A DNA stretch of 64,000 bases, taken from NCBI GenBank assembly GCA_947629925.1, contig CANRFO010000008.1, positions 14,722 through 78,721 of the forward strand. The letters are read 5' to 3'. This stretch comes from an uncultured Ruminiclostridium sp. (GTDB taxonomy: Bacteria > Bacillota > Clostridia > Oscillospirales > Ruminococcaceae). A program made the translations under genes and the position numbers. This document shows positions 15,342 through 51,240 of this stretch, piece after piece. Each line of letters begins with the position of its first letter. The first letter of the stretch is position 1. The notes under the pieces were generated by a model that searched no databases, had not been told where the DNA came from, and was given only the letters and a program-made list of their open reading frames with translations.

Positions 15342-15444
15342 GCGGCGAAGCCGCAGTCGGCGCTTTGCGCCGACCTGATGATTTTGCTTCGCAAAATCAT
15401 CACTTTTGTTCGGGCTGCGCCCGAACAAAAGGCGGCTTCGCCGC
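15342..15444. repeat. Multi-hairpin palindromic element, family A, copy 1
   Basis: gcggcgaagccgc + three perfect hairpins (loops ttt, ttc, tgc) + gcggcttcgccgc. Confidence 0.85.
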
Positions 15445-15561
15445 CCCGCTCCACGCACATCTTCCCTTAAACCCGCACCGCCTTATAAACCCATTAAATT
15501 CCCACCCCAAAAAGAAAAACGCTGACCGTGGGAACCACAGTCAGCGCAGATATGTACATGA

Positions 15562-15927
15562 TTATTCCTCAACTACCTCAGCTTCGGGAGCGTTCTTCTT
15601 AACGCTTTCGATACCGTTCAGGCAGCTGGGCTTAGCCTTGTAGCCCTCGCTGGTAGCGATTATCTCACCGTTGCGAGCCTTGAGTCTGAAACGATATTCG
15701 CCCTTCTTGTCCTGATAAACCTCAAATTTGGGGTGCTTGAGAGTTTCGTAGCCTTCAACGGTCTGATCCTCAACGCCGCCCTCGCAGCACTTGCGAACGC
15801 TTTCGATACCGTTCTTGCAAGCGGAATCGGTGGTGTACACCTCGCTGGTAGCGATAACTTCGCCGTTGCCTGCCTTCAGGTCGAACTTAACGCCTGTTGC
15901 AGTGTGCTTGATAACAAACTTGCCCAT
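15562..15927 (-). CDS. yegP: YegP-family (tandem DUF1508) protein
   Basis: Two copies of F-x-L-K-A-x-N-G-E-x-I-A-T-S-E-x-Y...C-x-N-G-I-E-S-V. Confidence 0.85.
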   Translation of the reverse strand: MGKFVIKHTATGVKFDLKAGNGEVIATSEVYTTDSACKNGIESVRKCCEGGVEDQTVEGYETLKHPKFEVYQDKKGEYRFRLKARNGEIIATSEGYKAKPSCLNGIESVKKNAPEAEVVEE

Positions 15928-16045
15928 GGTTTTTTCCTCCTGAATTTTAAAATTAAATATTGACCCGACTGTTCGGGAAAAGTACGAATTCTATTTATTA
16001 AATTATAACATATTTTCCGCAAAAAAGCAAGAAAAAACAACATAA

Positions 16046-16074
16046 TTGACAAAGGTATTTTGTTATGCTACAAT
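16046..16074 (+). promoter_or_regulatory. Sigma-A promoter for rmuC
   Basis: TTGACA-17 bp-TACAAT with an extended TG. Confidence 0.7.
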
Positions 16075-16108
16075 AATTACAGTTAATTTTCAGAATGAAG
16101 GAGCAGAA

Positions 16109-17410
16109 ATGGAGATCTTAGGAATAATTTTTTCGGCAGTTTCAATCATTATCAGCATTATCCTGCTGATAATCGTTATAAAAAACGGTAAGCCCTCAGG
16201 CGGCGGGGACAATTCCAAGGAGCTTGAGGTGATAAAGGACAGGCTTTCCACCCTTTCCACCGACCAGAAGGGAAGTCAGACGGAATTAAGGCGGGAAGTT
16301 TCCGACAACATAAAGGGCTTGTCCCAAATGCTCAGCGACAGCCAACGTCAGTCCGCAGACAATATGAATCAGCGGCTGGAATTGCTGGAGCACCGCTTGC
16401 AGGGCATAGAGAAAAACAACGTAGACGCCCTTTCCAAGGTAAACGAAACGGTAAACAAGCAGCTGCTTGAAATAAGGGAGGACAACGGCAAGCGCCTTGA
16501 CCAGATAAGGACCACCGTTGATGAAAAGCTGCAAAAGACCCTTGATGAGAGAATGACCCAGTCCTTCAAGACCGTAAGCGAGCGCCTTGAAGAGGTACAC
16601 AAGGGGCTCGGCGAAATGCAGAGCCTTGCGGCGGGAGTGGGGGATCTGAAAAAGATACTCTCCAACGTGAAAACAAGAGGTATTATGGGCGAAACTCAGC
16701 TTGAGGGTATTTTGTCCGAAATTCTTGCCCCCGAACAGTATGAAAAAGACGTTGCCACAATCCCTGACAGCAAGAACCGCGTCGAATTTGCAATAAAGCT
16801 CCCCGGCGACGGAGACGGAACTATCTATCTTCCCATAGACGCAAAATTCCCCGGCGATACATACCATGCGCTGAGAGACGCTTACGACAGCGGCGACAAG
16901 GACACGGTTGATGCGGCGAAAAAAGTCCTTGCCGAGCGGATACGAAACAGCGCAAAGGACATTCACGACAAATACATACAGCCCCCTCACACCACAGGTT
17001 TCGGAATAATGTTCCTGCCCTTTGAGGGGCTTTACGCCGAGGTGGTGAATATGGGGCTGGTAGAGGAGCTCCAGCAGAAATTTCAGGTGAACATAGCGGG
17101 ACCCTCCACAATGGCGGCAATGCTGAACTCTCTTTATATGGGCTTTCGCACCCTTGCGATACAAAAGCGCAGCGACGACGTATGGAAGGTGCTTTCAGGC
17201 GTCAAGGGTGAGTTTGAGAACTTTGAAAAGGTGCTTAAATCGGCGCAAATGCGTTCCCGTCAGCTTGACGACGATCTGGAAAAGCTGGTGGGCGTTCGCA
17301 CCCGTCAGATAAACAAATCCCTCAAAAGCGTTGAGACCCTTGAAGGCGGTCTGGACGGACTTGTAGCGATAATACAGGGAACGGACGAAACGGAAAATGA
17401 GGAAGAATAA
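16109..17410 (+). CDS. rmuC: DNA recombination protein RmuC
   Basis: N-terminal TM, coiled coil, LSNVKTRGIMGETQLE, LPIDAKFP, FGIMFLPFEGLYAE, IAGPSTMAAMLNSL; ATG 16109 after GAAGGAG. Confidence 0.92.
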   Translation: MEILGIIFSAVSIIISIILLIIVIKNGKPSGGGDNSKELEVIKDRLSTLSTDQKGSQTELRREVSDNIKGLSQMLSDSQRQSADNMNQRLELLEHRLQGIEKNNVDALSKVNETVNKQLLEIREDNGKRLDQIRTTVDEKLQKTLDERMTQSFKTVSERLEEVHKGLGEMQSLAAGVGDLKKILSNVKTRGIMGETQLEGILSEILAPEQYEKDVATIPDSKNRVEFAIKLPGDGDGTIYLPIDAKFPGDTYHALRDAYDSGDKDTVDAAKKVLAERIRNSAKDIHDKYIQPPHTTGFGIMFLPFEGLYAEVVNMGLVEELQQKFQVNIAGPSTMAAMLNSLYMGFRTLAIQKRSDDVWKVLSGVKGEFENFEKVLKSAQMRSRQLDDDLEKLVGVRTRQINKSLKSVETLEGGLDGLVAIIQGTDETENEEE

Positions 17411-17443
17411 AAAATGCCGTGGAGCAAATTCCACGGCGTTTTT
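17409..17443. terminator. Bidirectional terminator between rmuC and the acp gene
   Basis: aaaatgccgtgga-gcaaat-tccacggcgttttt between convergent genes. Confidence 0.75.
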
Positions 17444-17451
17444 ATGCCCTT

Positions 17452-17685
17452 TTACATACGTTCCTTAATTATATTCGCCATTTCCCCCACGTTTTTCATA
17501 CCGCTCACCTCGCCCATGGTAAAGCGCACGCCGAATTCGCTTTCCACAGCGTCTATCAGCGTGATGTGGTTCAGGCTGTCCCAGTCCTCGATGTCGTCGG
17601 CGGTGGTGTCCTCGTTCACGGTAATGCTTTCGTCGTCAAAAACATCTCTGAACACGCCGTTCAGTCTTTCGTATATCTCGTCCAT
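17452..17685 (-). CDS. Acyl carrier protein
   Basis: 77 aa, acidic, WDSLNHITLI phosphopantetheine attachment motif. Confidence 0.9.
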   Translation of the reverse strand: MDEIYERLNGVFRDVFDDESITVNEDTTADDIEDWDSLNHITLIDAVESEFGVRFTMGEVSGMKNVGEMANIIKERM

Positions 17686-17700
17686 AGCTCAAGCTCCCTT

Positions 17701-19464
17701 TCAGTTTATTTCAATATGTGAAGTTCGGTTTTCGTAAGGATCAATTGACAGCTCCCAGCGGGTATTTCCCTCGCCGTCCTCCTCCGTCTTTGTGAAACCG
17801 AAGTCCATATACAGATCCTTTACCATAGAATTTTTCGGAGTGGGGTAATAATGTCCCACCAGCTTAGTTATGCCCTGCTCCCTTGCCTTTTGAACAAGCA
17901 CGTCCAGCATAGCAAATTCCATTTCTCTTTTCAGCACACGGCAGCTCATCAGCCAAAGCTGAATATCAAGAACGTCGCCCTGCTTTTCCCCAATGACCAC
18001 GCTCACAATGCCGTTGTCGCCGTATTTGTCCGTAAGCCGCCCACAAAGGCGGATATAATTTTCACTTTTGTACACCTTTTCCATCTCGGCAGGGGAATAG
18101 CGTTTGGTGGTAAGATTAAACTGGTTGCTCTTGTTGGTGAGCTGGGTAACTCTTGCCAGATTGATAGGCGAAAAGTCCTCAATAACTGCTTTCATCTCAA
18201 GAAAATCCAGATATTCCCCGTAATCCTTGAAGGAGGACTGCGCCGCCGCCCTCTCGGCGTTCTGCTTGTACATCTCAACTCTGCGCAGGTCGTCGGCGGA
18301 GAAGTTCGTCACTTCAAAATATCCGCCCTTGTCAAGGGTCTTGATATAATTTTCAATGCCGTCCATAGGCGGGGTCTCTATCCCCATATCGCCCACTATC
18401 GCGCGCTCGGCGGGATTGTCGTCCACGAACACAATGCTTTCGGGGAGCAGGTCAAGCTCCTTTGCGGTCTGCTGAATGTTCAGGCTTTTAGGGTCCCAGT
18501 TCGCCTTTATCACGGTGAAATCGTCAGGGCGAAGAACGCCGTCAGGGTGTTCAAGTCCTGCAATTGCATTTTCACGGTCGTTTTTGGAGCATACTGTCAG
18601 CAGTACCCCAAGCTGTTTTTGCGCCTTGATGTAGGACTGAAACTCGCAGTACGCCTGCCCCAACGGTACTTCCTGCCCCAGAGCAAGGTTTTCAACTCCG
18701 TCGTCCCCCACAACGCCGCCCCAGAGGGTGTTGTCAAGGTCAAGGGCGAGGACCTTTTTGTTCTTTCCAAGGAGAGAAGCGAAAATTTTCGCCAGACTAA
18801 AGGCAAAATCAGGGAAAAACGGCACAGCCACCGCATACTTGTACATATTCCAGTACAGCGGGTCGGAAAACTTTTCCAGTCCCAAAGATGCGCTGAGGTA
18901 GTTTATATCGTGAATGTAAAAATCACTGTGCGCTGCGGCGTAATCGTAAAAACCGCCGTTCAGCCTTGTCACAAAGTTCACCCTGCCGTGAAAGTCGGCG
19001 CAGTCCTTGTTGCCCAGCAGCCTCCAGTACGGCATTTCCATATTGTTTTGTATAACGGGACAGGAAAGGTCCTCCCTCAGCTTATCCCACATCACGGTGA
19101 AATGCTCAAGCTGATTTTTCAGCAGACCGTCTACTTCCTCCTTGCTCATTGACATTTCGGGGAAAGCGGAAATATTTCTTGAAGTGGTGTGGATAAACAC
19201 AAAATCAGGCTGAAACTCACGCAGCTCGGCGCCGAACATTGCGTCCTGCCAGTATTGAGCGTATTCGCACTGGTAAAATTCCGCCTTTATCCCGTAATAA
19301 AGCAGGAAAAGCTCCAGCATATCCACGATTCCGTTGGTGGTGGAGCCGCCCAGCACCGCTATTTTCTTTTCGATTCGCTTGCTGCCGTCTGAAAGCAGAG
19401 CGCGCTTCAGCGACCGCTGCTTTTTCATTATTTCGGCGCTGTCAAAGGGATAAAAATTTGCCAT
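17701..19464 (-). CDS. FkbH-like HAD-IIIC phosphatase/glyceryl-ACP transferase
   Basis: HAD motif LDLDNTLWGGVVGDDG, VCSKND, VFVDDNPAER, QLTNKSNQFNLTTKRY, DKYGDNGIV, WLMSCRVLKR; N-terminal SGNH-like region. Confidence 0.88.
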   Translation of the reverse strand: MANFYPFDSAEIMKKQRSLKRALLSDGSKRIEKKIAVLGGSTTNGIVDMLELFLLYYGIKAEFYQCEYAQYWQDAMFGAELREFQPDFVFIHTTSRNISAFPEMSMSKEEVDGLLKNQLEHFTVMWDKLREDLSCPVIQNNMEMPYWRLLGNKDCADFHGRVNFVTRLNGGFYDYAAAHSDFYIHDINYLSASLGLEKFSDPLYWNMYKYAVAVPFFPDFAFSLAKIFASLLGKNKKVLALDLDNTLWGGVVGDDGVENLALGQEVPLGQAYCEFQSYIKAQKQLGVLLTVCSKNDRENAIAGLEHPDGVLRPDDFTVIKANWDPKSLNIQQTAKELDLLPESIVFVDDNPAERAIVGDMGIETPPMDGIENYIKTLDKGGYFEVTNFSADDLRRVEMYKQNAERAAAQSSFKDYGEYLDFLEMKAVIEDFSPINLARVTQLTNKSNQFNLTTKRYSPAEMEKVYKSENYIRLCGRLTDKYGDNGIVSVVIGEKQGDVLDIQLWLMSCRVLKREMEFAMLDVLVQKAREQGITKLVGHYYPTPKNSMVKDLYMDFGFTKTEEDGEGNTRWELSIDPYENRTSHIEIN

Positions 19465-19477
19465 GCCCTGCTCCTTT

Positions 19478-20626
19478 TTATTTTATAATGGCGTTCATGC
19501 AGGAACAATTCGCCCCCGCGGGAGTAAAAGTACACATAGCGAAAAGCAGGTCGGTAGCTCCTACCTCCTTGCAGAAGTCGGTAAGCTCCAGATCAAAATA
19601 TCTCAGATCCGTAACGTATATTTTTTCATAGCACTCTGTCAGGAAAGGGATAAGCGCGTTTCCGTAGCTTTCCTTGCAGACCACGAGGGTTTTTCCGTTT
19701 TTGCAGTCGGTATCTATCTCGGCTATGCAGATGTCAGTTCCCAAAAATGAAAGATAATATCCGCTTGCGTCGGGGTAAGTGAACAGGTGTCCCTGATAGC
19801 CGTTTTGGAATGAAGTGTCATAATAAGTGGTCGTAAGAGCGTCCGCATTAGGGGAAATGTAGAGGTCAAAGGGTTCAGGGTCGTTGTACAGATTTACGCT
19901 TTTGGAGTAGTTGTACATTGAGCCGACATAGCCTTCCTTAGTTACCTTTTCATACTCCGTAAGAGCGGGGAAAAGATCGTCGACTCCCGCAGTCTTTGCA
20001 AAGGCTTCAGCGGCGTAATAAGCGCCAAGCGGCTGCCAGTGGTGATCGGTGCGGGTGTATACAGGCTCTTCCTTGTGTTCCTCAAGTGCGCTGTAAGCGT
20101 CAACTGAAACAGCCTTTGAAAGCCCGTCGGCTATGTAGTCTATTTTTTCCTTCTGGCTTGCGGAATAACCGCTCACATCATCGGGAAGATAAAATTCCAC
20201 GGAGGTGGGGATTATCATACTGTATACATTAACGTCGGGAAGCTTTTCCGCCGCCTTCTCTACGCAGGAAACATAGTTATCGCAAAGCTCAAACGTTCCC
20301 CAGCAGCCCATAAGCCCCATATAATGACCGTTTCTTCCTATTATAAGAATGTTGTTTTCGCCGTATTCACGGTAATCATCGGGAACATTCCCGGGTTCTT
20401 CGGAGGGGGCGGGAGTTTCCTCAGGCTCGGTGGTGGTCGTGGTCACAGGAGTAGTGGTAGTTGCAACAGTTGTGGTGGTAGTGGTGGTAGTTATTGCCGC
20501 TTCGGTAGTAACGGAGGTATCGGCGGAGGTATTTTCAGGCTGAAGCTTTTCCGCCTCTGAACAGCCTGAAACGGCAAGCGCGGCGCACAGCACAACAGCG
20601 GCGCCGAAAAATTTATTTTTACGCAT
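19478..20626 (-). CDS. DHHW-family (AlgJ/AlgX-like) lipoprotein with Thr-rich linker
   Basis: Lipobox AVSGC; YTRTDHHWQPLGAYY; KESYGNA; poly-Thr stalk. Confidence 0.8.
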   Translation of the reverse strand: MRKNKFFGAAVVLCAALAVSGCSEAEKLQPENTSADTSVTTEAAITTTTTTTTVATTTTPVTTTTTEPEETPAPSEEPGNVPDDYREYGENNILIIGRNGHYMGLMGCWGTFELCDNYVSCVEKAAEKLPDVNVYSMIIPTSVEFYLPDDVSGYSASQKEKIDYIADGLSKAVSVDAYSALEEHKEEPVYTRTDHHWQPLGAYYAAEAFAKTAGVDDLFPALTEYEKVTKEGYVGSMYNYSKSVNLYNDPEPFDLYISPNADALTTTYYDTSFQNGYQGHLFTYPDASGYYLSFLGTDICIAEIDTDCKNGKTLVVCKESYGNALIPFLTECYEKIYVTDLRYFDLELTDFCKEVGATDLLFAMCTFTPAGANCSCMNAIIK

Positions 20627-20656
20627 TTTACAGCCTTTCTCGTTTTTAACCTGTTT

Positions 20657-22030: not shown

Positions 22031-22127
22031 GTCAGGCTCCTTAACTCTTGTTCGGCGAACAACTTATGAAAATATGATTTCACTTTTCACGGAATGTATC
22101 ATAAAATCATTTGTTTTTTACCATACT

Positions 22128-22156
22128 ATTATACACCCGTTGCAATAAAACGTCAA
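22128..22156 (-). promoter_or_regulatory. Sigma-A promoter of the DHHW-FkbH-ACP operon
   Basis: Minus strand TTGACG-17 bp-TATAAT with an extended TG. Confidence 0.7.
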
Positions 22157-22278
22157 CAAATTACAAAAATAAAATTATTTCGTAAGAATTATACGTTTTA
22201 CGACATTACATATGAAATTCCCCCTTTCTTGAATAAATACGTTTTATCCTCCCCAAAGGTCAAAAAAAGAAAGGCTCT

Positions 22279-22376
22279 CCGCAAAAAAACGCGGAAAGCG
22301 GCAGATATGAAAACGCTCCCCCGATTCTTGACGGATCGTAAAGGAGCGCTGAAAAGTACGTTGATGTTTTTGCGGC
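22279..22376. repeat. ~90-bp dispersed structured element, family C, copy 2
   Basis: Aligns with 15099-15187 with compensatory base changes in the stems. Confidence 0.6.
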
Positions 22377-22383
22377 AAAGCTT

Positions 22384-22839
22384 TTATTTTTCTGCGGCGA
22401 ACCTGTCCCTCTGCTCAACGGCAAGACGGTCGCAGCGCTCGTTTTCCGCGTGGCCTGCGTGACCTTTTATCCAGCTGAACCTGACCTCGTGTATTTCAAG
22501 AAGCTTCAGCAGCCTTTCCCACAGATCCTTATTCAGCGCAGGCTTCTTGTCGCTTTTTATCCAGTTGTTTCTTTGCCAGCTTTTCGCCCAGCCCTTTTCA
22601 ATACCGTCCACAACATATTTTGAATCGGTCTGAAGAATTACTTTGCAAGGATATTTAAGCGCTTCAAGCCCCGCGATGACCCCTGAAAGCTCCATGCGGT
22701 TGTTGGTGGTGGCCGCTTCGCCGCCGAAAAGCTCCTTTTCACGTCCGTCACAGCGGAGTATCACGCCGTATCCGCCCGGGCCGGGATTTCCTGAGCAGGC
22801 GCCGTCTGAGAAAATATAAACAGTCTTTTTTTCAGGCAT
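22384..22839 (-). CDS. rnhA: Ribonuclease HI
   Basis: [31 protein letters not shown], KNxDLW-like [23 protein letters not shown]. Confidence 0.97.
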
Positions 22840-25234: not shown

Positions 25235-25301
25235 CGCCTTTCGTTTTGAAATTCTGCATTAATTAAAATGTTTTCCTTTTTTAGAAGGTTGAGGTAAAAA
25301 A

Positions 25302-25441
25302 TCCTCTTTAAGCCGTTTGAGGTTATTATAACATAAAGAGAGCTTTTGCGAAGCAAATGCGATTCCTCTTAAACGTTAAAATGTTCTCAAACATCAAAAT
25401 AAATCTATTCCTCTTTAAGCTGTTTGAGGTTATTATAACAC
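25302..25441 (-). repeat. ~108-bp promoter-hairpin repeat, about 1.3 copies (same family as the 44075-44624 array)
   Basis: tcctctttaagccgtttgaggttattataacataaagagagcttttgcgaagcaaatgcgattcctcttaaacgttaaaatgttctcaaacatc... nearly identical to the 44 kb units; period 107 bp. Confidence 0.9.
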
Positions 25442-25482
25442 AAAAACCCCGATTTGTAAACAAAAACGGCGGGAAACCTTCA

Positions 25483-25528
25483 GCCGCGCCTACATGGGAA
25501 AACACAGATCTTCCTATGTCAGGGCGGC
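25483..25528. repeat. REP-like repeat, family B, nested in a terminator loop
   Basis: gccgcgcctacatgggaaaacacagatcttcctatgtcagggcggc enclosed by the stem aaaaacggcgggaaa...tttcccgccgcttttt (25462-25545). Confidence 0.65.
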
Positions 25529-25551
25529 TTTTCCCGCCGCTTTTTCATCTG

Positions 25552-28053: not shown

Positions 28054-28084
28054 TTTTTACCCCTTTCTCGGCTATAAAGCCGCG

Positions 28085-28520: not shown

Positions 28521-28532
28521 TGTTACAGTCAT

Positions 28533-29815: not shown

Positions 29816-29937
29816 TATCGTTTTTTCCTTTCGGTAAAGTTATTTTTCAGTAAATTTATAACGCCTGCTCTTTTCGCGGAACAAAGCTCCCGCAATTTAG
29901 CGGCGGCGTCAGTCCCTTAAGGAAGGCGGTGCGTACC

Positions 29938-30039
29938 GCGGCGAAGCCGCCGTTGTTCCGGCTGCGCCGGGACAACGGAACGGATTTGCGTGCAAATCCG
30001 TTCGTTTGACAGCGAAGCTGTCAAACGCGGCTTCGCCGC
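29938..30039. repeat. Multi-hairpin palindromic element, family A, copy 2 (inverted flank)
   Basis: gcggcgaagccgc + three hairpins (loops tgc, gt, gaa) + gcggcttcgccgc. Confidence 0.85.
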
Positions 30040-30122
30040 TTGCAGGCGTGCTTATTTTCCGCAGTTCTTCCTCGGTTATACCGCGGGAGCTTTCCTTCTT
30101 CGGAAAGAGCAGTTATTTTAAT

Positions 30123-43025: not shown

Positions 43026-43029
43026 ACGC

Positions 43030-43995: not shown

Positions 43996-44074
43996 AACAT
44001 ATCTCCTTGATAAAAGGTATGAACGTATATATTCATCGATGCGGTAAATAAATTCATTGTTATACGGGTATATA

Positions 44075-44624
44075 TTATTATAACATAAGAAGAGCATTTT
44101 GCCTCGCAAAATGCGATTCCTCTTAAATGTTAAAATGTTCTCAAACATCAGGATAATATATTCCTATTTAATCCGTTTGAGGTTATTATAACATAAGAAG
44201 AGCTTTTGCGAAGCAAATGCGATTCCTCTTAAATGTTAAAATGTTCTCAAACATCAGGATAATATATTCCTATTTAATCCGTTTGAGGTTATTATAACAT
44301 AAAAAGAGCTTTTTGCGAAGCAAAATGCGATTCCTCTGAACCGTTACAATGTTCTCAAACATTAAAATAAAATTATTCCTCTTTCCGCTGTTTGAGGTTA
44401 TTATAACATAAGGAGAGCATTTTGCCTCGCAAAATGCGATTCCTCTGGATCGTTAAAATGACCTCAAACGTTAAAATAATATATTCCTATTTAATCCGTT
44501 TGAGGTTATTATAACATAAGAAGAGCTTTTTGCGAAGCAAAATGCGATTCCTCTGGATCGTTAAAATGACCTCAAACGTTAAAATAATATATTCCTCTTT
44601 AAGCTGTTTGAGGTTATTATAACA
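44075..44624 (-). repeat. Tandem array of five ~108-bp units plus a terminal partial unit
   Basis: ttattataaca recurs at 44075, 44183, 44289, 44398, 44506 and 44614; each unit is a long imperfect hairpin tipped by gcgaagc or gcctcgc and carries TGTTATAAT on the minus strand. Confidence 0.92.
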
Positions 44625-44714
44625 CATTTATCGCGGTAACTTCAAGTAAAATATTGGAAAAAGCAAAAAATCGGCGATTTACCCGAAAAAATTGAGCAAA
44701 TTGCCGATTATAGA

Positions 44715-46199
44715 TCAAAGATTAGTGTAGCCCAGCAGTGCCTTGTCTACTTCCTTTGCGCACTCGCGCCCCTCTTTTATCGCCCATACCACCAGTGACT
44801 GCCCTCTGTGCATATCGCCGCAGGTAAAGACTTTTGGAACGTTTGTGGAATATTTTCCCGCTTCTGTCTTGACGTTGCTCCTGCCGTCAGTTTCAACGCC
44901 GAAAGCCTTTGTGACATAGCTCTCGCTGCCAAGAAATCCCGCCGCTATAAGCACCAGATTAGCAGGAACGGTGTATTCGCTGTCCTTTATCTCTTTCATT
45001 ACCGTTCTGCCCGTCTTTTTATCAACGGAGGGCTCCAGCTTCACAAGCACAAGCTGTTTCAGATTGCCCCGCTTGTCTTTCACAAATTCCTTCACCGTGG
45101 TCTGATAAACTCTCGGGTCTGCGCCGAAAACGGCCGCCGCCTCTTCCTGACCGTAGTCGGTCTTGCACACCCTCGCCCACTGAGGCCAAGGATTGTTTTC
45201 CGCCCTTTCATCGGGGAGCTTCGGCATCATCTCAAGCTGCAAAACGCTTTTTGCACCGTGGCGTACGGAAGTCCCAACGCAGTCGTTGCCCGTGTCGCCG
45301 CCGCCGATTATAACCACGTGCTTATTTTTTGCGCTGATGAATGTCCCCTCCGCAAGGTCCTTGTCCAACAGGCTCTTTGTGGTGGAGGTGAGAAAATCCA
45401 CCGCAAAGTAAATTCCCTTTGCGTCGCGTCCCTCTGCTGAAATATCACGGGGCTGTGACGCTCCGCAGGCGAGGATAACTATGTCGAAATCCTTCAGCAG
45501 CTTTTCCGCCTCAACGTTTTCACCCACGTTTTTCCCCGTTTCAAAGAGGACGCCCTCTTCTTTCATTATCTCTATGCGCCGTTCTATGATGTGCTTTTCA
45601 AGCTTCATATTGGGTATACCGTACATCAGCAGACCTCCCACCCTGTCGCTCCTCTCAAAGACAGTGACAGAATGTCCCCGCTGATTGAGCTGGTCCGCCG
45701 CCGCAAGCCCCGACGGGCCTGAGCCTATGACGGCTATCTTCTTGCCCGTTCTGACAGCGGGGATATGAGCCTTTGCTATACCCTGCTCGTAGGCGTATTC
45801 AACGATGCCGTATTCGTTCTGCTTTACCGTTACGGGGTCATCGTGAACGCCGCAGGTGCAGGCAGCCTCGCAAAGCGCAGGGCATACTCTACCTGTAAAT
45901 TCGGGGAAATTGTTGGTCTTTCTCAGACGGTTGTACGCCTGCTCCCAGTTTCCTGTGTAAATAAGGTCGTTCCATTCGGGGATAAGGTTGTTCAGCGGGC
46001 AGCCGCTTACCATTCCGCCTATCACCATTCCCGACTGGCAGAAAGGAACGCCGCACGCCATACATCTTGCGCCCTGCTCCTGCTGTTTTTCACGGGACAG
46101 GGGGATATGGAACTCGTCAAAATTTTCTATTCGCTCCTCTGGAGCGACAGCCTCCGCGTTCTCACGCTGAAATTCAAGAAATCCCGTAGGCTTTCCCAT
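44715..46199 (-). CDS. gltD: Glutamate synthase small subunit
   Basis: MGKPTGF, RCMACGVPFC, GCPLNNLIPEWN, GRVCPALCE, GSGPSGL, GGGDTGNDC, GDMHRGQSLVVWAI. Confidence 0.97.
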   Translation of the reverse strand: MGKPTGFLEFQRENAEAVAPEERIENFDEFHIPLSREKQQEQGARCMACGVPFCQSGMVIGGMVSGCPLNNLIPEWNDLIYTGNWEQAYNRLRKTNNFPEFTGRVCPALCEAACTCGVHDDPVTVKQNEYGIVEYAYEQGIAKAHIPAVRTGKKIAVIGSGPSGLAAADQLNQRGHSVTVFERSDRVGGLLMYGIPNMKLEKHIIERRIEIMKEEGVLFETGKNVGENVEAEKLLKDFDIVILACGASQPRDISAEGRDAKGIYFAVDFLTSTTKSLLDKDLAEGTFISAKNKHVVIIGGGDTGNDCVGTSVRHGAKSVLQLEMMPKLPDERAENNPWPQWARVCKTDYGQEEAAAVFGADPRVYQTTVKEFVKDKRGNLKQLVLVKLEPSVDKKTGRTVMKEIKDSEYTVPANLVLIAAGFLGSESYVTKAFGVETDGRSNVKTEAGKYSTNVPKVFTCGDMHRGQSLVVWAIKEGRECAKEVDKALLGYTNL

Positions 46200-46200
46200 A

Positions 46201-49200
46201 TCAGTTTGCCCCCTTTCCGTTTACAATGCTGTAAAACGCTTCTATCTGCGCCTGCTCCTCCGTCATGCCCTTTTCCTCAAAGCTGAGTATGGCGGTGGTC
46301 ATCTTTTTGTAGTCGTGAGGGATAATGCGCTTGAATTTCGGCAGATATTCCTCAAAATTGTCAAGTATCATTTTTCCCTTTTGGGAATTTGTAGCGGCAA
46401 CGTGCTGTTCGATAAGCTCCTTCAGCTCGATTATGTCGTACTTTTCCTTTACCTCGCCGCTGCTTACCATTTCCTTGTTCAATTTCATATACAGATCTCT
46501 GTCCTCGTCAAGAACGTAAGCGATACCGCCGCTCATACCTGCGGCAAAGTTTTTGCCCGTCTTTCCCAGAACAACTACCCGTCCGCCTGTCATATATTCG
46601 CAGCCGTGGTCGCCCACGCCCTCAACTACCGCCACGGCGCCGCTGTTCCTTACGCAGAAACGCTCGCCCGCAACGCCGTTGATGAACGCCTTTCCGCTGG
46701 TAGCGCCGTAAAGGGCAACGTTGCCGATTATGATGTTGTCCTCCGCCTTGAAGGTACATTCAGCGGGAGGATAAACCACTAACTTTCCGCCTGAAAGACC
46801 CTTTCCGAAATAGTCGTTGCTGTCCCCCACAAGCTCAAGCGTCAGACCGTTTGGAATGAATGCGCCGAAGCTCTGACCGCCTGCGCCGTGACAGATAACT
46901 TTAAAGGTATCGTCAGGCAGGGAATCGCCGAATTTTCTCGTTATCTCACTGCCGAGGATAGTGCCCAGAGTGCGGTCGGTGTTCTTTATCTTTATATTCA
47001 CGGTCTTAGGCTTTCCGCTTTTCAGGGAAGAGGAAAATTCCTTAAGCAGTACCTTTTCGTCCACCGTGTTTTCAAGGTTGAAATCGAAAAGCTGTTTTTC
47101 GTGATATTTTACTTCCTCGGAGGTAAATTCCTCGTCGGGGCTGATTATCTTTGACAAATCAAGCTCTGAGCCGTGGCTGTCAAGCCCGCTTTTTCTCTTT
47201 AACAGGTCGTTTCTTCCCACAAGCTCGTCAACGGTGCGGATACCAAGCCTTGCCATATATTCACGCAGCTCCTGCGCCACGAATTTCATAAAGTTTATGA
47301 CGTATTCGGGCTTGCCCGCAAAGCGCTTTCTCAGCTCGGGATTTTGCGTAGCCACGCCGAAAGGACAGGTATCAAGGTTGCACACTCTCATCATAACGCA
47401 GCCCAAGGTTACTAGCGGAGCAGTAGCAAAGCCGTATTCCTCCGCGCCAAGCAGAGCCGCCACAAGCACGTCACGCCCTGTCATCAGCTTGCCGTCCGTT
47501 TCGATGACTACCTTATTTCTCAGCCCGTTCATAATCAGGGTCTGGTGCGCCTCCGCAAGACCAAGCTCCCAAGGCAGTCCCGCATTGTAAATGGAGTTTC
47601 TGGGAGCGGCGCCTGTGCCGCCGTCAAAGCCGCTTATGAGAATTACCGCCGCGCCCGCTTTGGCAACGCCTGCGGCGACTGTTCCGACGCCGCACTCAGA
47701 TACAAGCTTAACGCTTATCCTTGCGTCCTTGTTGGCATTTTTCAGGTCGTAAATAAGCTGAGCCAAGTCCTCTATTGAGTAAATGTCGTGATGAGGAGGC
47801 GGGGAGATAAGTCCCACGCCGGGAGTGGAATGTCTTGTCTTAGCTATCCATGGGTAGACCTTTTTGCCCGGGAGATGTCCGCCCTCACCGGGCTTTGCCC
47901 CCTGCGCCATTTTTATCTGTATCTCCTCAGCGCAGGTGAGATATTTTGAGGTAACGCCGAAACGTCCCGACGCCACCTGCTTTATTGCGGAACAGCGGTC
48001 GTCCTTTGTCCCTCTGCTTTCAAGGCGGTCAAGACTTTCGCCGCCCTCGCCCGAATTGGAACGCCCGTGGAGGGTGTTCATGGCTATCGCAAGGGTCTCG
48101 TGCGCCTCCTGAGAAATAGAGCCGTAGCTCATCGCTCCCGTCTTGAAACGGCGGACAATGCTGTCAACACTTTCCACTTCGTTTATATCTATGCCCTTTT
48201 CGGGGAAGTTAAAGTCCATCAGCCCGCGGAGATTTACAGGCGCCATCTCCTCGTTTATCAGCTTTGAATATTGCTTGTAAAGCTGATAATCGCCCGTTCT
48301 CACCGCCTGCTGGAGCAGGTATATGGTCTGAGGATTGTACAGGTGTTCCTCCTTACAGCTTCTGAACTTGTGACTGCCCCTGCTGTCCAGCGCCTCGTCA
48401 ACGCCCAGCCCCAGCGGGTCGAACGCCATTGTGTGAAGTCTGTCTACGTTGCGCTCAATATCTTTCAACGTAACGCCCTGAACACGGCTGACTGTGCCTG
48501 TGAAGTAGGTGTCTATGACTTCCTTGCTGATACCGATAGCCTCAAATATCTGTGAGCCCTGATAGGACTGTATGGTGCTGATACCCATTTTTGACGCTAT
48601 CTTGACGATCCCATGGAGAACGGCGCTGTCGTAGTCATTTACTGCGGCGTAATAGTCCTTGTCAAGCAGGTCTCTTGAAATAAGGCTTTGTATCGCTTCC
48701 TGTGCAAGATAGGGGTTTACTGCGCTTGCACCGTAGCCTAAAAGCGTTGCAAAGTGGTGTACTTCTCTGGGTTCACCGCTTTCCAGAATCACCGCAAGGG
48801 AAGTCCTCTTTTTGGTAACGACAAGGTGCTGATGCAAAGCGGAAACTGCAAGCAGTGAGGGTATGGCAACGTGGTTCTCATCAACGCCTCTGTCGGACAG
48901 GATAAGTATGCTTGCCCCCTCGCTGTGGGCTTTGTCCGCCTCAAGGTTCAGCCTGTTCAGCGCCTTTTTCAGCGAAGTGTTTTTATAATAAAGTATGGGA
49001 ATGACTGCCACCTTAAAGCCGGGGATATGCATATTCTTTATCTTCAGCATATCGGTGTTGGTGAGAATGGGGTTCTTTATCTTGATTACCTGACAATTCT
49101 CGGGGCGCTCCTCAAGAATGTTACCGTCCTCGCCGATGTATACGGTGGTGGAGGTAACTATCTCCTCTCTTATAGCGTCGATAGGCGGGTTGGTCACCTG

Positions 49201-50745
49201 AGCGAAAAGCTGTTTGAAGTAGTTGAACAGCGGCTGAGGCTGGTCGGAAAGAGCGGCAAGAGGACTGTCCGTACCCATAGCGGCAATGCTCTCAGAGCCT
49301 GTCTTTGCCATAGGCAGGATACTTGTCATAACGTCCTCGTATGTATAGCCGAAGGCTTTCATCAGACGCTTGCGCTCGGCGTACTCGTGGTCGTCCACCT
49401 TGATGTTGGGTATTTTAAGGTCGGAAAGCTGCACCAGATTGCTGTCCAGCCACTCGCCGTAGGGCTGTCTTGAGGCGTAGCTCTCTTTCAGCTCGTTGTC
49501 GTCGATAACCCTTCCCTGAACGGTATCAACAAGGAGCATTTTGCCGGGGCGGAGCCTTTCCTTTTCAACAATGGACTGCGGGTCTATCTCCAAAGCTCCC
49601 ACCTCGGAGGAGAGAATGAGAAAACCGTCCTTTGTGATGTAGTAGCGGGAGGGGCGCAGACCGTTTCTGTCCAGAACAGCGCCCATAATGTCGCCGTCGC
49701 AGAACAGTATTGATGCGGGACCGTCCCACGGCTCCATCATCGTGGCGTAATACTGATAGAAATCACGCTTTGTCTTGCTGATAGTCTCGTTGTTGTCCCA
49801 AGGCTCGGGTATGGTTATCATAACGGCAAGGGGAAGGTCCATACCGCTCATTACCAGAAATTCAAGGGTGTTGTCCAGCATGGCGGAGTCACTGCCCTCG
49901 GTGTTCACAACGGGGAGAACCTTGTCAAGGTCGCCCTTTAAATGCTCGGACTTCATAGTTTCCTCACGGGCGAGCATTTTGTCGGCGTTGCCCTTTATGG
50001 TGTTTATCTCGCCGTTATGTACTATCATTCTGTACGGATGGGCTCTCTGCCAGCTGGGATTTGTGTTGGTGGAGAAACGGGAATGTACCATAGCGATAGC
50101 GGTCTCGTAGTCCTTGTCCTGAAGATCGGGGAAAAACCTTCTCAGATCCTGCACAAGGAACATTCCCTTATATACGATAGTGCGGCTTGACAGGGAAACG
50201 ACGTAAGTGTCCTCGTTGCTCTGCTCGAAAACGCGCCTTGCAACGTACAGCTTGCGGTCGAAGTCAAGGCCCCTGCGCACGTCGGCGGGACGCTTGATAA
50301 AGCACTGCATAATGCAGGGCATACATTCCACCGCCCGCTGACCCAGCACCTCGGGAACAGACGGCACCTGCCGCCAGCCCAGCACTTCAAGCCCTTCCTT
50401 GTCGGCGATTATCTCAAACATCTTCTTCGCCTGATTGCGGGCCAGCTCGTTCTGCGGGAAGAAGAACATTCCCACGCCGTAATCCCGTTCGCCGCCAAGC
50501 TCTATGCCTATCTTTGCCGCTGTTTTCTTAAAGAATTTGTGGGAAATTTGCAGCAGTATTCCCACGCCGTCGCCTGTTTTGCCCTCGGCGTCCTTTCCTG
50601 CTCTGTGTTCCAGCGTTTCAACTATGGTCAAGGCGTTTTCCACCGCCTTGTGGGATTTTTTGCCCTTGATGTTCACCACTGCGCCGATACCGCAGTTGTC
50701 GTGTTCAAATTCGGGTGAATACAGGGTATTTTTTTGCGTTTCCAT
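46201..50745 (-). CDS. gltB: Glutamate synthase large subunit
   Basis: EHDNCGIG, HSRFSTNT, HNGEINT, EPWDGPA, AMSYGSIS, IKMAQGAKPGEGG, SPPPHHDIYSIEDL, CVMMRVCNLDTCP, GERFCVRNSG. Confidence 0.98.
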   Translation of the reverse strand: METQKNTLYSPEFEHDNCGIGAVVNIKGKKSHKAVENALTIVETLEHRAGKDAEGKTGDGVGILLQISHKFFKKTAAKIGIELGGERDYGVGMFFFPQNELARNQAKKMFEIIADKEGLEVLGWRQVPSVPEVLGQRAVECMPCIMQCFIKRPADVRRGLDFDRKLYVARRVFEQSNEDTYVVSLSSRTIVYKGMFLVQDLRRFFPDLQDKDYETAIAMVHSRFSTNTNPSWQRAHPYRMIVHNGEINTIKGNADKMLAREETMKSEHLKGDLDKVLPVVNTEGSDSAMLDNTLEFLVMSGMDLPLAVMITIPEPWDNNETISKTKRDFYQYYATMMEPWDGPASILFCDGDIMGAVLDRNGLRPSRYYITKDGFLILSSEVGALEIDPQSIVEKERLRPGKMLLVDTVQGRVIDDNELKESYASRQPYGEWLDSNLVQLSDLKIPNIKVDDHEYAERKRLMKAFGYTYEDVMTSILPMAKTGSESIAAMGTDSPLAALSDQPQPLFNYFKQLFAQVTNPPIDAIREEIVTSTTVYIGEDGNILEERPENCQVIKIKNPILTNTDMLKIKNMHIPGFKVAVIPILYYKNTSLKKALNRLNLEADKAHSEGASILILSDRGVDENHVAIPSLLAVSALHQHLVVTKKRTSLAVILESGEPREVHHFATLLGYGASAVNPYLAQEAIQSLISRDLLDKDYYAAVNDYDSAVLHGIVKIASKMGISTIQSYQGSQIFEAIGISKEVIDTYFTGTVSRVQGVTLKDIERNVDRLHTMAFDPLGLGVDEALDSRGSHKFRSCKEEHLYNPQTIYLLQQAVRTGDYQLYKQYSKLINEEMAPVNLRGLMDFNFPEKGIDINEVESVDSIVRRFKTGAMSYGSISQEAHETLAIAMNTLHGRSNSGEGGESLDRLESRGTKDDRCSAIKQVASGRFGVTSKYLTCAEEIQIKMAQGAKPGEGGHLPGKKVYPWIAKTRHSTPGVGLISPPPHHDIYSIEDLAQLIYDLKNANKDARISVKLVSECGVGTVAAGVAKAGAAVILISGFDGGTGAAPRNSIYNAGLPWELGLAEAHQTLIMNGLRNKVVIETDGKLMTGRDVLVAALLGAEEYGFATAPLVTLGCVMMRVCNLDTCPFGVATQNPELRKRFAGKPEYVINFMKFVAQELREYMARLGIRTVDELVGRNDLLKRKSGLDSHGSELDLSKIISPDEEFTSEEVKYHEKQLFDFNLENTVDEKVLLKEFSSSLKSGKPKTVNIKIKNTDRTLGTILGSEITRKFGDSLPDDTFKVICHGAGGQSFGAFIPNGLTLELVGDSNDYFGKGLSGGKLVVYPPAECTFKAEDNIIIGNVALYGATSGKAFINGVAGERFCVRNSGAVAVVEGVGDHGCEYMTGGRVVVLGKTGKNFAAGMSGGIAYVLDEDRDLYMKLNKEMVSSGEVKEKYDIIELKELIEQHVAATNSQKGKMILDNFEEYLPKFKRIIPHDYKKMTTAILSFEEKGMTEEQAQIEAFYSIVNGKGAN

Positions 50746-51145
50746 AAGCCGCCCCTTTCCTTATTGTGTCGATATGCTATAATTATAACACTGTATAAAG
50801 AAAAAAGCAAGATTTATTTTCAAATCTTGCAAAATTTGTCCGTTTTTTGGTGTAGATATTTTGGAGAAAATCGGTGTTTCATTTGTAGATTTTTTACAAA
50901 AGGCACGGCAGACAGAACTTTTTGGGACAATGGTCGGGAGAAATTTGCGGGATTTGTGGGAGAAGTATTTGCAGAAATATTTTTAAAAAGGAAAATTTTG
51001 CAGGATAGGTGGGGCTAACTTGCAAGTGTGATATGAGAAATTTAAATTTTTACGTCTGCGCTGTTTGCGGGCGGGGCGATAACTTAGGCAAGCGCCTGCT
51101 CACACGGTGCGGAAGGGAAGAAGTGCGCTGTTTAAAGTGTTGTGC

Positions 51146-51240
51146 GCGGCGAAGCCGCCGACGCCGAAGGCGTCGGGCAGGACTTGCGGAGCAAGTCCTG
51201 CCGTTTGGAGCGCTCCGCGCTCCAAACGCGGCTTCGCCGC
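51146..51240. repeat. Multi-hairpin palindromic element, family A, copy 3
   Basis: gcggcgaagccgc + three perfect hairpins (loops gaa, gga, tcc) + gcggcttcgccgc; right flank shares cgcacatcttccc...cccacc.caaaaagaaaaa with copy 1. Confidence 0.85.

Follow-up and report, generated by a model that had tools for sequence, protein, structure and literature searches.

Three sites in the window (the whole stretch of 64,000 nucleotides analysed here, from an uncultured Ruminiclostridium sp.) host members of one family of non-coding palindromic repeats. Probably, if only just, the family is REP/BIME-like: DNA selected for its ability to fold, and reshaped by template switching or recombination. The functional form would be the folded DNA, either single-stranded or extruded as a cruciform, and not a strand-specific RNA. 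Purifying selection would hold the pairing perfect, probably helped by template switching within the hairpins, and loops and cores would be flipped by template switching, or by recombination between inverted arms. Repeats may have spread in the past as non-autonomous elements by way of a putative mobilising enzyme, and been inherited vertically since. As to their role, the best guess is a putative binding or topological signal of the REP/BIME type.

Three cloverleaf cores

An earlier inspection of the letters alone, called here the sequence-only reading, had marked three copies of an element, and the cores were found again at exactly the same positions (Table 1). The proposed layout, GCGGCGAAGCCGC followed by three abutting, near-perfect hairpins and by the reverse complement of the 13-mer, is seen in all of them. 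In the 64 kb window the exact 13-mer is confined to the six core ends, and a scan for perfect hairpins (stem of at least 8, loop of 3 to 5) detected three-hairpin clusters at the three cores only. Folded as single-stranded DNA, both strands of each core form the closing stem and the three hairpins; the energies range from -51 to -62 kcal/mol, and the z-scores relative to dinucleotide shuffles from -9.8 to -14.7. On these three grounds, a chance origin of the cores is excluded. Arm 1 of copy 2 contains the sole mismatch inside the window arms, a T/G, and seven of the nine loops are GNA on one of the two strands, the others being one AAA/TTT and one of 4 nt; near-perfect arms and mostly GNA loops had both been anticipated. 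Arm 1 of copy 1 is flanked by unpaired A and C. The order of the arms is reversed in copy 2 relative to copy 1, and the copy 2 core is identical in sequence in four other assemblies.

Table 1. Positions of the repeat units, cores and hairpins in the window
Feature	Position	Size	Details
Copy 1 approximate full unit	15292-15519		boundaries good to ~15 bp, set by flank homology with non-orthologous copies
Copy 1 core	15342-15444	103 bp	fold -62.4 kcal/mol, z -14.7
Copy 1 closing stem	15342-15354 with 15432-15444	13 bp	extended by GGGG/CCCC
Copy 1 hairpin 1	15356-15374	8 bp	loop TTT
Copy 1 hairpin 2	15376-15402	12 bp	loop TTC
Copy 1 hairpin 3	15403-15431	13 bp	loop TGC
Copy 2 full unit	29865-30112	248 bp	32-bp terminal inverted repeats at both ends
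Copy 2 left terminal repeat	29865-29896		CTGCTCTTTTCGCGGAACAAAGCTCCCGCAAT
Copy 2 right terminal repeat	30081-30112		CCGCGGGAGCTTTCCTTCTTCGGAAAGAGCAG
Copy 2 core	29938-30039	102 bp
Copy 2 closing stem	29938-29950 with 30027-30039
Copy 2 hairpin 1	29951-29977	12 bp	one T/G mismatch included; loop TGC
Copy 2 hairpin 2	29978-30003	11 bp	loop CGTG
Copy 2 hairpin 3	30004-30026	10 bp	loop GAA
Copy 3 approximate full unit	51056-51314		left end a decayed terminal repeat, CTGCGCTGTTTGCGGG...
Copy 3 core	51146-51240	95 bp
Copy 3 closing stem	51146-51158 with 51228-51240
Copy 3 hairpin 1	51159-51175	7 bp	loop GAA
Copy 3 hairpin 2	51176-51202	12 bp	loop GGA
Copy 3 hairpin 3	51203-51227	11 bp	loop TCC

The conserved core measures 89-110 bp, and either strand folds into a cloverleaf, that is, a four-way junction. 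Its closing stem has 13 bp, GCGGCGAAGCCGC pairing with GCGGCTTCGCCGC, and is often extended by GGG/CCC; inside it are three perfect hairpins, directly adjoining one another, with stems of 7-13 bp and 3-nt loops closed by C-G. Pairing is perfect in 132 of 138 arms, and the 1466 pairs comprise 952 G-C, 512 A-T and 2 G-T. RNAalifold recovers the cloverleaf, with double compensated changes in 22 of 45 pairs. The notion that the arms differ completely between copies and vary freely is not borne out: from copy to copy the arms are homologous, and the changes by which they differ are compensated. Aligned with 14 others, copies 1 and 2 show positional homology in each of their three arms. Similarly, a five-hairpin fold, in which the 13-mers would form hairpins of their own, is disfavoured, as the terminal GAA/TTC triplets behave like paired stem positions, not like loops. 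They are unchanged in about 17 orthologous pairs having an intact core on both sides, and the GGA...TCC variant of one paralogue is compensated. Judging from these substitutions, the 13-mers pair with each other, and the structure is a cloverleaf rather than a row of five hairpins.

A family of intergenic mosaic repeats

An exact-pattern scan of 185,579 genomes identified 46 three-hairpin copies. Most of them (39) reside in two rabbit-gut "Ruminiclostridium" MAGs, which host at least 20 and at least 19 copies, respectively, and are 77-94% identical to the window region; four more are found in two Oscillospiraceae MAGs. Since copies were ascertained by an exact 26-base end pattern, those with diverged ends are under-sampled; three copies with variant ends were met by chance outside this pattern. 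The search for further copies recommended by the sequence-only reading thus uncovers a family of non-coding repeats, placed between genes, of which each of two related genomes has at least 19-20 copies. The possibility, raised in the same place, that only the window copies exist, with no strain polymorphism, does not hold: copies are many, and strains differ in one loop. Repeats of this kind, REP-like intergenic palindromes, are already known. The family has no match in Rfam, IMG/VR or the literature, is seemingly undescribed, and was found only in a small clade of herbivore-gut Clostridia. An outer inverted repeat around three hairpins, of similar architecture, was also observed in Saprospiraceae, Haliscomenobacter and Lewinellaceae, and similar arrays of triloop hairpins lacking the outer repeat in a Methanobacteriota MAG and in other Clostridia.

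Cores lie in the middle of units of 230-270 bp. Terminal inverted repeats of 32 bp (CTGCCCTTTTCG...CGAAAAGGGCAG) mark the unit ends in a subset of the copies, about 10 of 46; the unit is thus a mosaic, and its ends are often undefined. The left flank of copy 1, CCCTGACAAGCAC... when read outward, is common to other copies, and the right flank (CGCACATCTTCCCTTAAAC...CCCACCCCAAAAAGAAAAA) adjoins the terminator of a DUF1508 gene; terminators at 14944-14974 (+) and 15547-15519 (-) bracket the unit. The copy 2 unit occupies the greater part of the spacer that separates the OGG glycosylase and zinc-ribbon genes, both on the minus strand, and folds as a whole into a single long hairpin tipped by the cloverleaf (-82 kcal/mol, z -8.7). 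Neither promoter nor terminator is predicted in this spacer, and copy 2 is probably co-transcribed inside an operon. The left terminal repeat of copy 3 is intact in the orthologue L022, and its right flank ends in CCCACCACAAAAAGAAAAAA, beside the terminator of a MatE gene. The flank similarity noticed earlier among the window copies is real, but only partial. Copies 1 and 3, both located beyond intrinsic terminators, have in common CGCACATCTTCCCT, which adjoins the core, and, some 60 nt beyond it, CCCACCMCAAAAAGAAAAA; a related sequence is found, inverted, on the left side of copy 2. The outward flanks of the 46 copies begin with CCC, GCAC, GGCAC or CGCA. All copies are intergenic, and the gene contexts of the family include 9 divergent, 5 convergent and 22 tandem spacers.

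Complete units of 240-253 bp with conserved 32-bp termini have been found at no fewer than five independent sites: copy 2 of the window, three Lapin loci which carry the copy 2 termini on 253-bp paralogues, and L065, in a MAG that differs at the family level. Together with the size of the unit and the absence of ORFs, this is what one expects of an ordinary MITE mobilized by the DDE transposase of an IS, the 32-bp repeats with their CTG...CAG ends being the transposase sites and the cloverleaf a passenger. Such an origin looks quite improbable nonetheless. Target-site duplications or flanking direct repeats are missing at all five sites, and only about 20% of the copies have the 32-bp termini. 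A scan of the 185,579 genomes with the terminal-repeat pattern, a weak negative as an exact IUPAC match was required, returned element copies and one decayed copy only, and no terminal repeat flanking a gene. Moreover, conservation is much higher in the core than in the terminal repeats, contrary to expectation for a MITE.

Conserved stems, changing loops and inverted cores

Orthologous copies differ at 5 of 872 stem nucleotides (0.6%), at 237 of 2541 flank nucleotides (9.3%), and at 44 of 132 loop nucleotides (33%; Fisher p = 4e-25 and 2e-13 for these rates). Compared with the flanks, the rate of change is about 16-fold lower in stems and about 3.6-fold higher in loops, for which the odds ratio is about 5. 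By this comparison of sequences, structure is what is conserved, though gene conversion from same-arm paralogues could account for part of the conservation of the stems. The idea that a symmetry-preserving template switch diversifies the arms holds only in part: the arms are the slowest part of the element, but the loops do carry marks of the template-switch type. Template switching is known to perfect stems and to invert loops (PMC8794818). Among 45 orthologous loops, 5 are exact 3-nt inversions, and 3 are inversions accompanied by one substitution. One loop reads GAA, TTC or TAC in different strains, despite flanks which are about 99% identical. Six other assemblies of the same species differ in copy 1 only at the middle loop; similarly, between copy 3 and its orthologues L022 and L030 the stems are identical and the core varies in its loops alone, with flanks 77-88% identical. 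Template-switch correction alone could yield perfect Watson-Crick pairing, with no need of a function at the DNA level, which weighs against the preferred explanation.

Larger rearrangements have occurred as well. At two independent orthologous loci, the entire core has opposite orientations in different species, the inverted segment being exactly the one enclosed by the 13-mers; the core of copy 1 is inverted relative to its flanks in the orthologues L015 and L057. At one locus, a block made of the core and 101 bp, with directly repeated 13-mers at its borders, has been gained or lost: one species has it, the other lacks it. In addition, L014 and L025 differ in the orientation of a 294-bp segment that lies between 73-bp repeats. 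These changes recall an invertible or shuffling DNA switch, similar to an inverton or a shufflon, in which a site-specific recombinase flips the three-hairpin cassette by crossing over at the 13-mers. Such a switch is very improbable. Invertons and shufflons have both orientations side by side in a population, and a cognate invertase. All independent assemblies of the window species spanning the core, examined as Logan contigs and not as raw reads, have one and the same orientation, no recombinase gene is found nearby in the window, and the cassette shows no promoter-like asymmetry. Rare template-switch inversions between short inverted repeats account for the same pattern, and the 73-bp case may reflect assembler ambiguity, because the repeat may exceed the k-mer length of the assembler.

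Folded DNA or RNA

The prediction of a folded-DNA signature, rather than one of strand-specific RNA, is supported by the pairs, which are only of the Watson-Crick type, by the C(GNA)G-type triloops, and by the lack of strand bias: loops of the purine type lie on the coding-majority strand in 45 cases, against 37 (p = 0.44). C(GNA)G triloops are a hallmark of very stable DNA mini-hairpins, and d(GCGAAGC) is reportedly one of these, according to Hirao and colleagues. On the same three features, the signal looks DNA-level and strand-symmetric.

REP-type elements stabilise upstream mRNA, and the cloverleaf could likewise act in transcripts, as a four-way-junction RNA that, for example, stabilises 3' ends or intercistronic regions, marks a site of processing or forms a roadblock. 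Strong covariation, which supports a defined secondary structure, would be in line with this, as would the location of copy 2 between co-directional genes, with no predicted promoter or terminator. RNA from either strand, moreover, would fold equally well, and this and the probable co-transcription of copy 2 count against the preferred explanation. We regard a role in transcripts as unlikely all the same. G-T pairs are 2 in 1466, whereas RNA stems normally tolerate G-U; the orientation of the loops flips between orthologues with no coding-strand bias; and C-G-closed triloops are a motif of stability in DNA, not in RNA. Copies 1 and 3 are found outside terminators, and nine copies of the family in divergent promoter spacers. 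Rfam 15 yields no match at the gathering threshold over the whole window, and only sub-threshold, chance-level matches around copy 2 (best below-threshold E-value 0.002).

The question of mobility

Mobilization as ssDNA by an HUH Y1 enzyme (RAYT or IS200/IS605 TnpA) would make the repeats REPIN-like elements, with the 13-mer hairpins or the arms as recognition hairpins. DNA-type triloop hairpins, identical and hairpin-capable 13-mers arranged as an inverted pair at the termini, many intergenic copies and their vertical persistence are all compatible with such a process, and the breakpoints of both inversions and block gain or loss fall at the 13-mers. Yet this origin is unlikely. In REPs and IS200, hairpins are imperfect and serve on a single strand, whereas the stems described here are perfect and two-fold symmetric, and the terminal triplets evolve as paired positions, unlike hairpin loops. 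REP/REPIN elements served by RAYTs have GTAG or CGTC at one end of an imperfect palindrome of 20-40 nt, a tag that belongs to the reported definition of REPs (PMC3733652), and share their genome with a RAYT gene flanked by the repeats. The flanks of the 46 copies contain no such tag beside the palindromes, and the arms are perfect palindromes. The HUH partner envisaged by the sequence-only reading did not turn up: Pfam finds no HUH, RAYT or IS200 gene in the window, and a motif scan of family loci, about 250 kb in all, no HUH...Y ORF.

Two related types of elements were considered and set aside. PATEs derived from IS200/IS605 carry different subterminal imperfect hairpins on the left and on the right, have no terminal inverted repeats, and are active on one strand; here the ends are two-fold symmetric inverted repeats, and loop orientation has no strand bias. 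Integron attC sites are recognized by R''/R' boxes (RYYYAAC...GTTRRRY), extrahelical bases and their position at cassette boundaries; GTTRRRY boxes are missing at the core ends, and the neighbours are housekeeping genes, not cassettes.

In the loci examined, no mobilising enzyme, target-site duplication or clean empty site came to light. We infer transposition, active or past, only from the presence of homologous units at unrelated loci.

Significance

If the REP/BIME-like explanation is true, the family provides a clean natural system in which a branched DNA fold, and not a sequence, is kept across species, and unpaired triplets are mutational hot spots which flip by reverse-complementation. 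Two debated ideas would become directly measurable in a bacterial chromosome: the maintenance of perfect hairpins and the inversion of loops by template switching, and the status of REP-like repeats as selected structures or as junk. The element extends biology of the REP/BIME type to uncultured gut Clostridia, and accounts for breaks in short-read assemblies at such sites in these genomes. At present, the finding describes a repeat family, and reveals no new enzyme or function.

A broader view, rather improbable at this stage, is that the cores are part of a larger class, so far unrecognised, of DNA elements with several triloop-tipped hairpins, read as folded ssDNA by a dedicated, structure-specific enzyme. 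It might work at the 13-mers as a recombinase or a nuclease, or else serve as a factor for priming or loading. Such an enzyme would explain the inversions of the cassette and the gain and loss of blocks bounded by 13-mers, and the elements would have a host-level role, as suggested by stems conserved 16-fold better than the surrounding DNA.

Comparison with known systems

Inversions that reverse-complement loops, or a longer spacer between short inverted repeats, in a single event, and compensated changes that keep stems perfect, are typical of template-switch or small-inversion hairpins (PMC8794818; chloroplast spacer hairpins), and are found here as well. What PMC8794818 describes, however, is a mutational process, not a family of elements; here it acts on a repeated element with strongly constrained stems.

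The repeats of this family resemble REPs and REPINs with RAYTs, known in Enterobacteria and Pseudomonas (PMC3116915, PMC3733652, PMC8266576), in being short, GC-rich, non-coding palindromes, placed between genes in tens of copies (20 and 19 intergenic copies per rabbit MAG). REP copies range from tens to hundreds, and often form inverted doublets. In both types of repeat, inverted pairing gives a larger hairpin, the whole unit being here a long hairpin, inheritance has been vertical for long, and an action as folded DNA is suspected. REPs are one imperfect hairpin, or a hairpin doublet, whereas the core combines three perfect triloop hairpins in a four-way junction, has neither a GTAG/CGTC tag nor a RAYT in the window and the ~250 kb of loci, and resides in Clostridia. 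E. coli BIMEs have the same modular, mosaic build, in which a conserved palindromic core is joined to alternative flank modules, and are intergenic as well. Sequences are unrelated, however, and the palindromic units of BIMEs are single imperfect hairpins in alternating orientation. Binding of IHF or gyrase is documented for BIMEs. MITEs such as Correia, RUP and Nezha are similar to the subset of 240-253 bp units in having terminal inverted repeats, here of 32 bp, and no ORF; they differ in that the present units have no target-site duplication or parent IS, and an interior better conserved than the termini.

In the inverted terminal repeat of parvoviruses (AAV), an outer stem encloses small palindromes, and the interior occurs in two orientations, called flip and flop. 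This repeat, made by hairpin-primed replication, forms a three-way junction and terminates a linear ssDNA genome. By analogy, the cores also are branched DNA folds in which an outer stem surrounds internal palindromes and the interior has two orientations, but they form a four-way junction inside a bacterial chromosome, and their orientation is fixed within the species.

Structure of the cloverleaf repeats

The three cores residing in the window all start with GCGGCGAAGCCGC and end with GCGGCTTCGCCGC; in between lie three adjoining hairpins, separated by 0-1 nt. Sites and layout are exactly as the sequence-only reading had stated. The exact 13-mer is found in the 64 kb nowhere besides the core ends (expected, 0 exact matches, and 3.08 matches at ≤2 mismatches), and a scan for perfect hairpins detected triple clusters at these three places only. 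When folded as single-stranded DNA, both strands of the window cores form a closing stem and three hairpins at -51 to -62 kcal/mol, with z-scores of -9.8 to -14.7 versus dinucleotide shuffles. Chance or artefact was ruled out by z-scores of about -10 to -15, and by recovery of the elements from independent assemblies (ENA and Logan) of several studies; the occurrence of copies at orthologous loci in three species also counts against an artefact.

The arms are homologous and highly conserved, and not freely varying as had been proposed. A few related types (CTTTTGTTCGGGC, CTTTGCTTCGGGC, CTTTCTTCGGGC, TGATGATTTTGC, CACTGATTTTGC, CAATGATTTGC, AGTCGGCGC, AGTCGGAGCGC, GTTTGGAGCGC, CGACGCC and GCTTGCCCGC) cover all 138 arms of the family, and pairing is perfect in 132 of them. 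In 16 aligned non-orthologous copies, window copies 1 and 2 among them, the three arms correspond position by position, and RNAalifold returns a cloverleaf in which 22 of 45 pairs have pair-keeping changes on both sides. The structure is conserved via compensated changes.

The same reading had counted five hairpins. Central triplets of independent GAA hairpins at the ends would be expected to evolve like the arm loops. Among the 19-20 orthologous loci compared, about 17 pairs have an intact core in both genomes; the exact 13-mers are present in the partner genome as well, the single end change seen being a substitution at a stem position (L068), whereas 33% of the arm loop positions have changed in the same pairs. 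The sole paralogue with another triplet, at a locus of contig L001, has GGA at the left and TCC at the right end, and is thus compensated. Since the triplets are invariant, and the one exception is compensated, the two 13-mers behave as one 13-bp stem, often extended by GGG/CCC or more. Invariance and the one compensated case are the whole basis for preferring a cloverleaf to five hairpins, and make a good, not overwhelming, argument for it.

Coordinates of cloverleaf elements and other repeats (window positions unless a contig is named)
Feature	Position	Strand	Remarks
Cloverleaf core, copy 1	15342-15444
Cloverleaf core, copy 2	29938-30039
Cloverleaf core, copy 3	51146-51240
Complete unit around copy 2	29865-30112		248 bp
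Core with GGA/TCC triplets	L001:7749-7855
Operon and repeat modules around it	L030:163-2578
Operon and repeat modules around it	L031:5337-7734
106-109-bp units	44001-44650		tandem array of about six, upstream of CAP-domain gene
106-109-bp units	25290-25466		two, upstream of P-type ATPase gene
Second small palindromic repeat	897-929		intergenic
Second small palindromic repeat	15055-15079		intergenic; 260 bp left of copy 1
Second small palindromic repeat	53424-53460		intergenic
Third repeat	15203-15224	-	intergenic; adjoins copy 1
Third repeat	57856-57877	+	intergenic
Imperfect inverted repeat, 36 nt	57842-57917		includes third repeat
Sequence similar to third repeat	about 25480-25540
Four tandem paralogous gene pairs	53483-59155		spacing roughly 1.4 kb

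Genomic context and distribution

The window derives from a bacterium of the rabbit gut; two rabbit MAGs, submitted under the name 'uncultured Ruminiclostridium sp.', match it at 77-94% identity. It is ordinary chromosome, encoding ABC transporters, glutamate synthase, glutamine synthetase III, PcrA/UvrD and RNase H, in addition to OGG and UDG glycosylases, RmuC and ECF sigma factors. A phage or plasmid origin is unsupported, as IMG/VR gave 0 matches and the window genes are all housekeeping.

Among 185,579 species-representative genomes, a scan for the two 13-mers at a distance of 55-85 nt identified 76 loci. Folding of each match left 46 family copies with the three-hairpin architecture. Copies reside in the rabbit MAGs Lapin-020__bin123 (20) and Lapin-022__bin93 (19), in the Oscillospiraceae HAN074 (3) and Mgla_MAG_6-bin_38 (1), and in the window (3), the MAG numbers being probably underestimates because cloverleaf elements probably fragment assemblies. 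The remaining matches are other objects, which have the terminal 13-mer alone in common with the family; they are single long hairpins, from Stellaceae, Dictyobacter, haloarchaea and low-GC marine contigs. Because unrelated palindromic repeats of the first two and of the marine contigs also end in the 13-mer, it is not diagnostic by itself. The JGI metagenome collection contains essentially no family members, its matches belonging to other palindrome families, with one possible diverged relative (locus L084). A scan for the end pattern with degenerate loops gave no new members among the matches listed, which are high-GC chance occurrences. No match was found in Rfam, and a literature search retrieved no description of either 13-mer or of any such element.

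Two contigs of the family (L030, L031) carry a two-gene operon between two direct ~360-bp repeat modules, each made of two cloverleaf cores 171 bp apart. Judging from their translations, the operon products would resemble a VTC/CYTH-like protein and a membrane protein. Recombination between elements, or segmental duplication, would give this layout. Several independent short-read Logan contigs (L173-L177) end 133 bp past the DUF1508 gene; the one aligned, L173, breaks off inside the cloverleaf core.

Evolution of stems, loops and cores

The comparison of orthologous copies covered the window's species together with the two rabbit MAGs. In the 100-nt flanks, taken as reference, 237 of 2541 aligned nt differ (9.3%), plus indels. 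Arm stems differ at 5 of 872 nt (0.6%; Fisher p vs flanks 4e-25), arm loops at 44 of 132 (33%; p = 2e-13). Stems are under strong constraint, and loops are mutational hot spots with triplet inversions: of 45 orthologous loop pairs, 20 are identical and 12 differ by one substitution, 5 are exact reverse complements, 3 are reverse complements with one change, and 5 fall in none of these classes. Loops are drawn from a narrow, reverse-complement-symmetric set (GAA 43, TTC 23; TTT 15, AAA 11; GGA 14, TCC 13; TGC 4, GCA 3), and GC...GC closing dinucleotides occur in 102 of 138 arms.

Variation among strains was monitored at copy 1 in contigs encoding an identical DUF1508 protein, with ~99% identical flanks. 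Six were aligned with the window, five of which span the core. The middle loop is the only variable core site: the window and L170 have GAA, L171 and L172 have TTC, and L169 and L178 have TAC. Loop variants within one sample (Logan contigs) could stem from paralogous arms. Copy 2 showed no variation across four other assemblies.

Entire cores may be inverted as well. At copy 1 the window's species has the whole three-arm core inverted, relative to the flanks, when set against both rabbit MAGs; its orientation is identical in all five other spanning assemblies of the window's species. A second whole-core inversion distinguishes contigs L024 and L039, and L039 carries an extra block of core plus 101 bp, the ends of which are 13-mers. 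The breakpoints of the inversions, and of the one block gain or loss, fall in the inverted 13-mers. A 294-bp segment is inverted between 73-bp inverted repeats in L014 versus L025, an inversion not leaned on because the repeats may exceed the assembler k-mer length.

Folded DNA or RNA

Several independent sequence features point to folded DNA and strand symmetry. The census of all arms counted 952 G-C, 512 A-T and 2 G-T pairs, and the near-absence of G-T pairs favours DNA. Triloops of the C(GNA)G type, known from established work on d(GCGAAGC) to be exceptionally stable in DNA, are found on either strand; loop orientation flips between orthologues, and is not biased toward the locally dominant coding strand (45 vs 37, p = 0.44). 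Action at the RNA level would be in line with copy 2, which is probably transcribed, since its spacer is operon-like with no promoter or terminator predicted there, and RNA made from either strand would fold equally well. Coverage of the spacer in one metatranscriptome run was nil. Further features in favour of folded DNA are the siting of copies 1 and 3, beyond the intrinsic terminators of neighbouring genes, and the presence of copies in spacers of all three types (22 tandem, 9 divergent, 5 convergent). A role as intrinsic terminator was ruled out, as the core is not followed by a T-tract and copies occur in divergent promoter spacers.

Larger mosaic units

Non-orthologous copies share 30-90 bp of flank homology on either side. 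The unit is 253 bp long in the paralogues of three independent sites, and ends in 32-bp terminal inverted repeats (CTGCCCTTTTCGYGGAAGGATAGCTCYCGCGG and complement); a small hairpin in each terminal repeat covaries, CGCGG/CCGCG in Lapin MAGs becoming CGTGA/TCACG in HAN074. Window copy 2 is a complete unit, and folds into one long hairpin with the cloverleaf at the tip. The terminal motif is present on about 10 of 46 copies only; others, including window copies 1 and 3, carry alternative flank modules such as CGCACATCTTCCCTTTAA... and ...CCCACCMCAAAAAGAAAAA. The complete units all lack a visible target-site duplication, and a scan for an autonomous partner with the terminal-repeat pattern hit element copies only, none flanking a gene.

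Other repeats and similar elements

The window genome seems rich in mosaic intergenic repeats. Units of 106-109 bp, which could be repeated promoters or small-RNA units, include GTTTGAGGTTATTATAACA, a small GC-NNN-GC triloop hairpin (as GCTTTTGC-GAA-GCAAA or GCATTTTGC-CTC-GCAAAATGC) and an inverted CTCAAAC, and have the hairpin-tip style in common with the cloverleaf arms. A second palindromic repeat, AAAACACAGGTTTT-N-GAAAACC(TGTGTTTT), gave 5 matches versus 0 expected; the third repeat is AGCCGCCCCGCCAYAGGAAAAC. One member of the tandem gene pairs was confirmed as an ECF sigma-70 family protein, and the second gene of each pair, which has no Pfam match, presumably encodes an anti-sigma factor.

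Multi-copy elements with the cloverleaf logic reside in Bacteroidota MAGs (Saprospiraceae, Haliscomenobacter, Lewinellaceae and others; loci L364, L322, L335, L354, L355, L374, L381, L417). An outer inverted repeat, GGTTGTGTAAAAAG...CTTTTTACACAACC, surrounds three perfect hairpins, the middle one of about 33 bp with the tip TGATTTTGC-NNN-GCAAAATCA, and many contigs break off inside the elements. Clustering of nearby ORFs revealed no recurrent transposase near the similar elements of other phyla. Short perfect triloop hairpins, arrayed in groups of three to five, were found in one archaeon (Methanobacteriota MAG ND3_Bin_21; L328, L358, L388) and several gut Clostridia, as in Faecousia (L326/L360) and just after guaA (L331, L337, L366, L376, L307); one array, conserved across species, directly follows the GMP synthase gene. 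Clustered GC-NNN-GC hairpins thus seem to be widespread.

Mechanism and relation to known systems

Stems are plausibly kept by purifying selection for a foldable DNA element. Within a genome paralogues show many compensated differences, and orthologues are nearly identical, a pattern that speaks against stem conservation being due to concerted evolution. Template switching, a process known to make stems perfect and to invert loops (PMC8794818), may contribute to both at the perfect inverted repeats of the family, and to the inversion of whole cores. Units would have multiplied in the past as non-autonomous elements, and would now be inherited mostly vertically. The HUH partner envisaged by the sequence-only reading was found neither in the window, where a Pfam search detected no transposase or recombinase genes at all, nor by an HUH motif scan of ~250 kb of family loci.

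The family is real and apparently undescribed. Its evolutionary dynamics are unusually clear, and function and partner only putative. It would matter far more if it turned out to have a dedicated enzyme or a role in the host, and likewise if the Bacteroidota and archaeal multi-hairpin elements prove to be one class.

Neither a classical MITE nor an IS200/IS605 PATE fits. Against the former, no target-site duplication or parent IS turned up, and conservation is higher in the core than at the termini; against the latter, the family is symmetric and its termini are inverted. Loops and cores are inverted much as in the hairpin-associated small inversions of template-switch studies. Parvovirus ITRs consist of an outer stem and small internal palindromes, and occur in two orientations; the cloverleaf layout may recall them by analogy. 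In working, the family comes closest to REP/REPIN and BIME elements, being intergenic, palindromic, mosaic and vertically persistent, and probably read as folded DNA. It falls outside the GTAG- and CGTC-tagged REP superfamilies because the tag is absent. What is new is the cloverleaf core, within a general kind of bacterial repeat that is already known.
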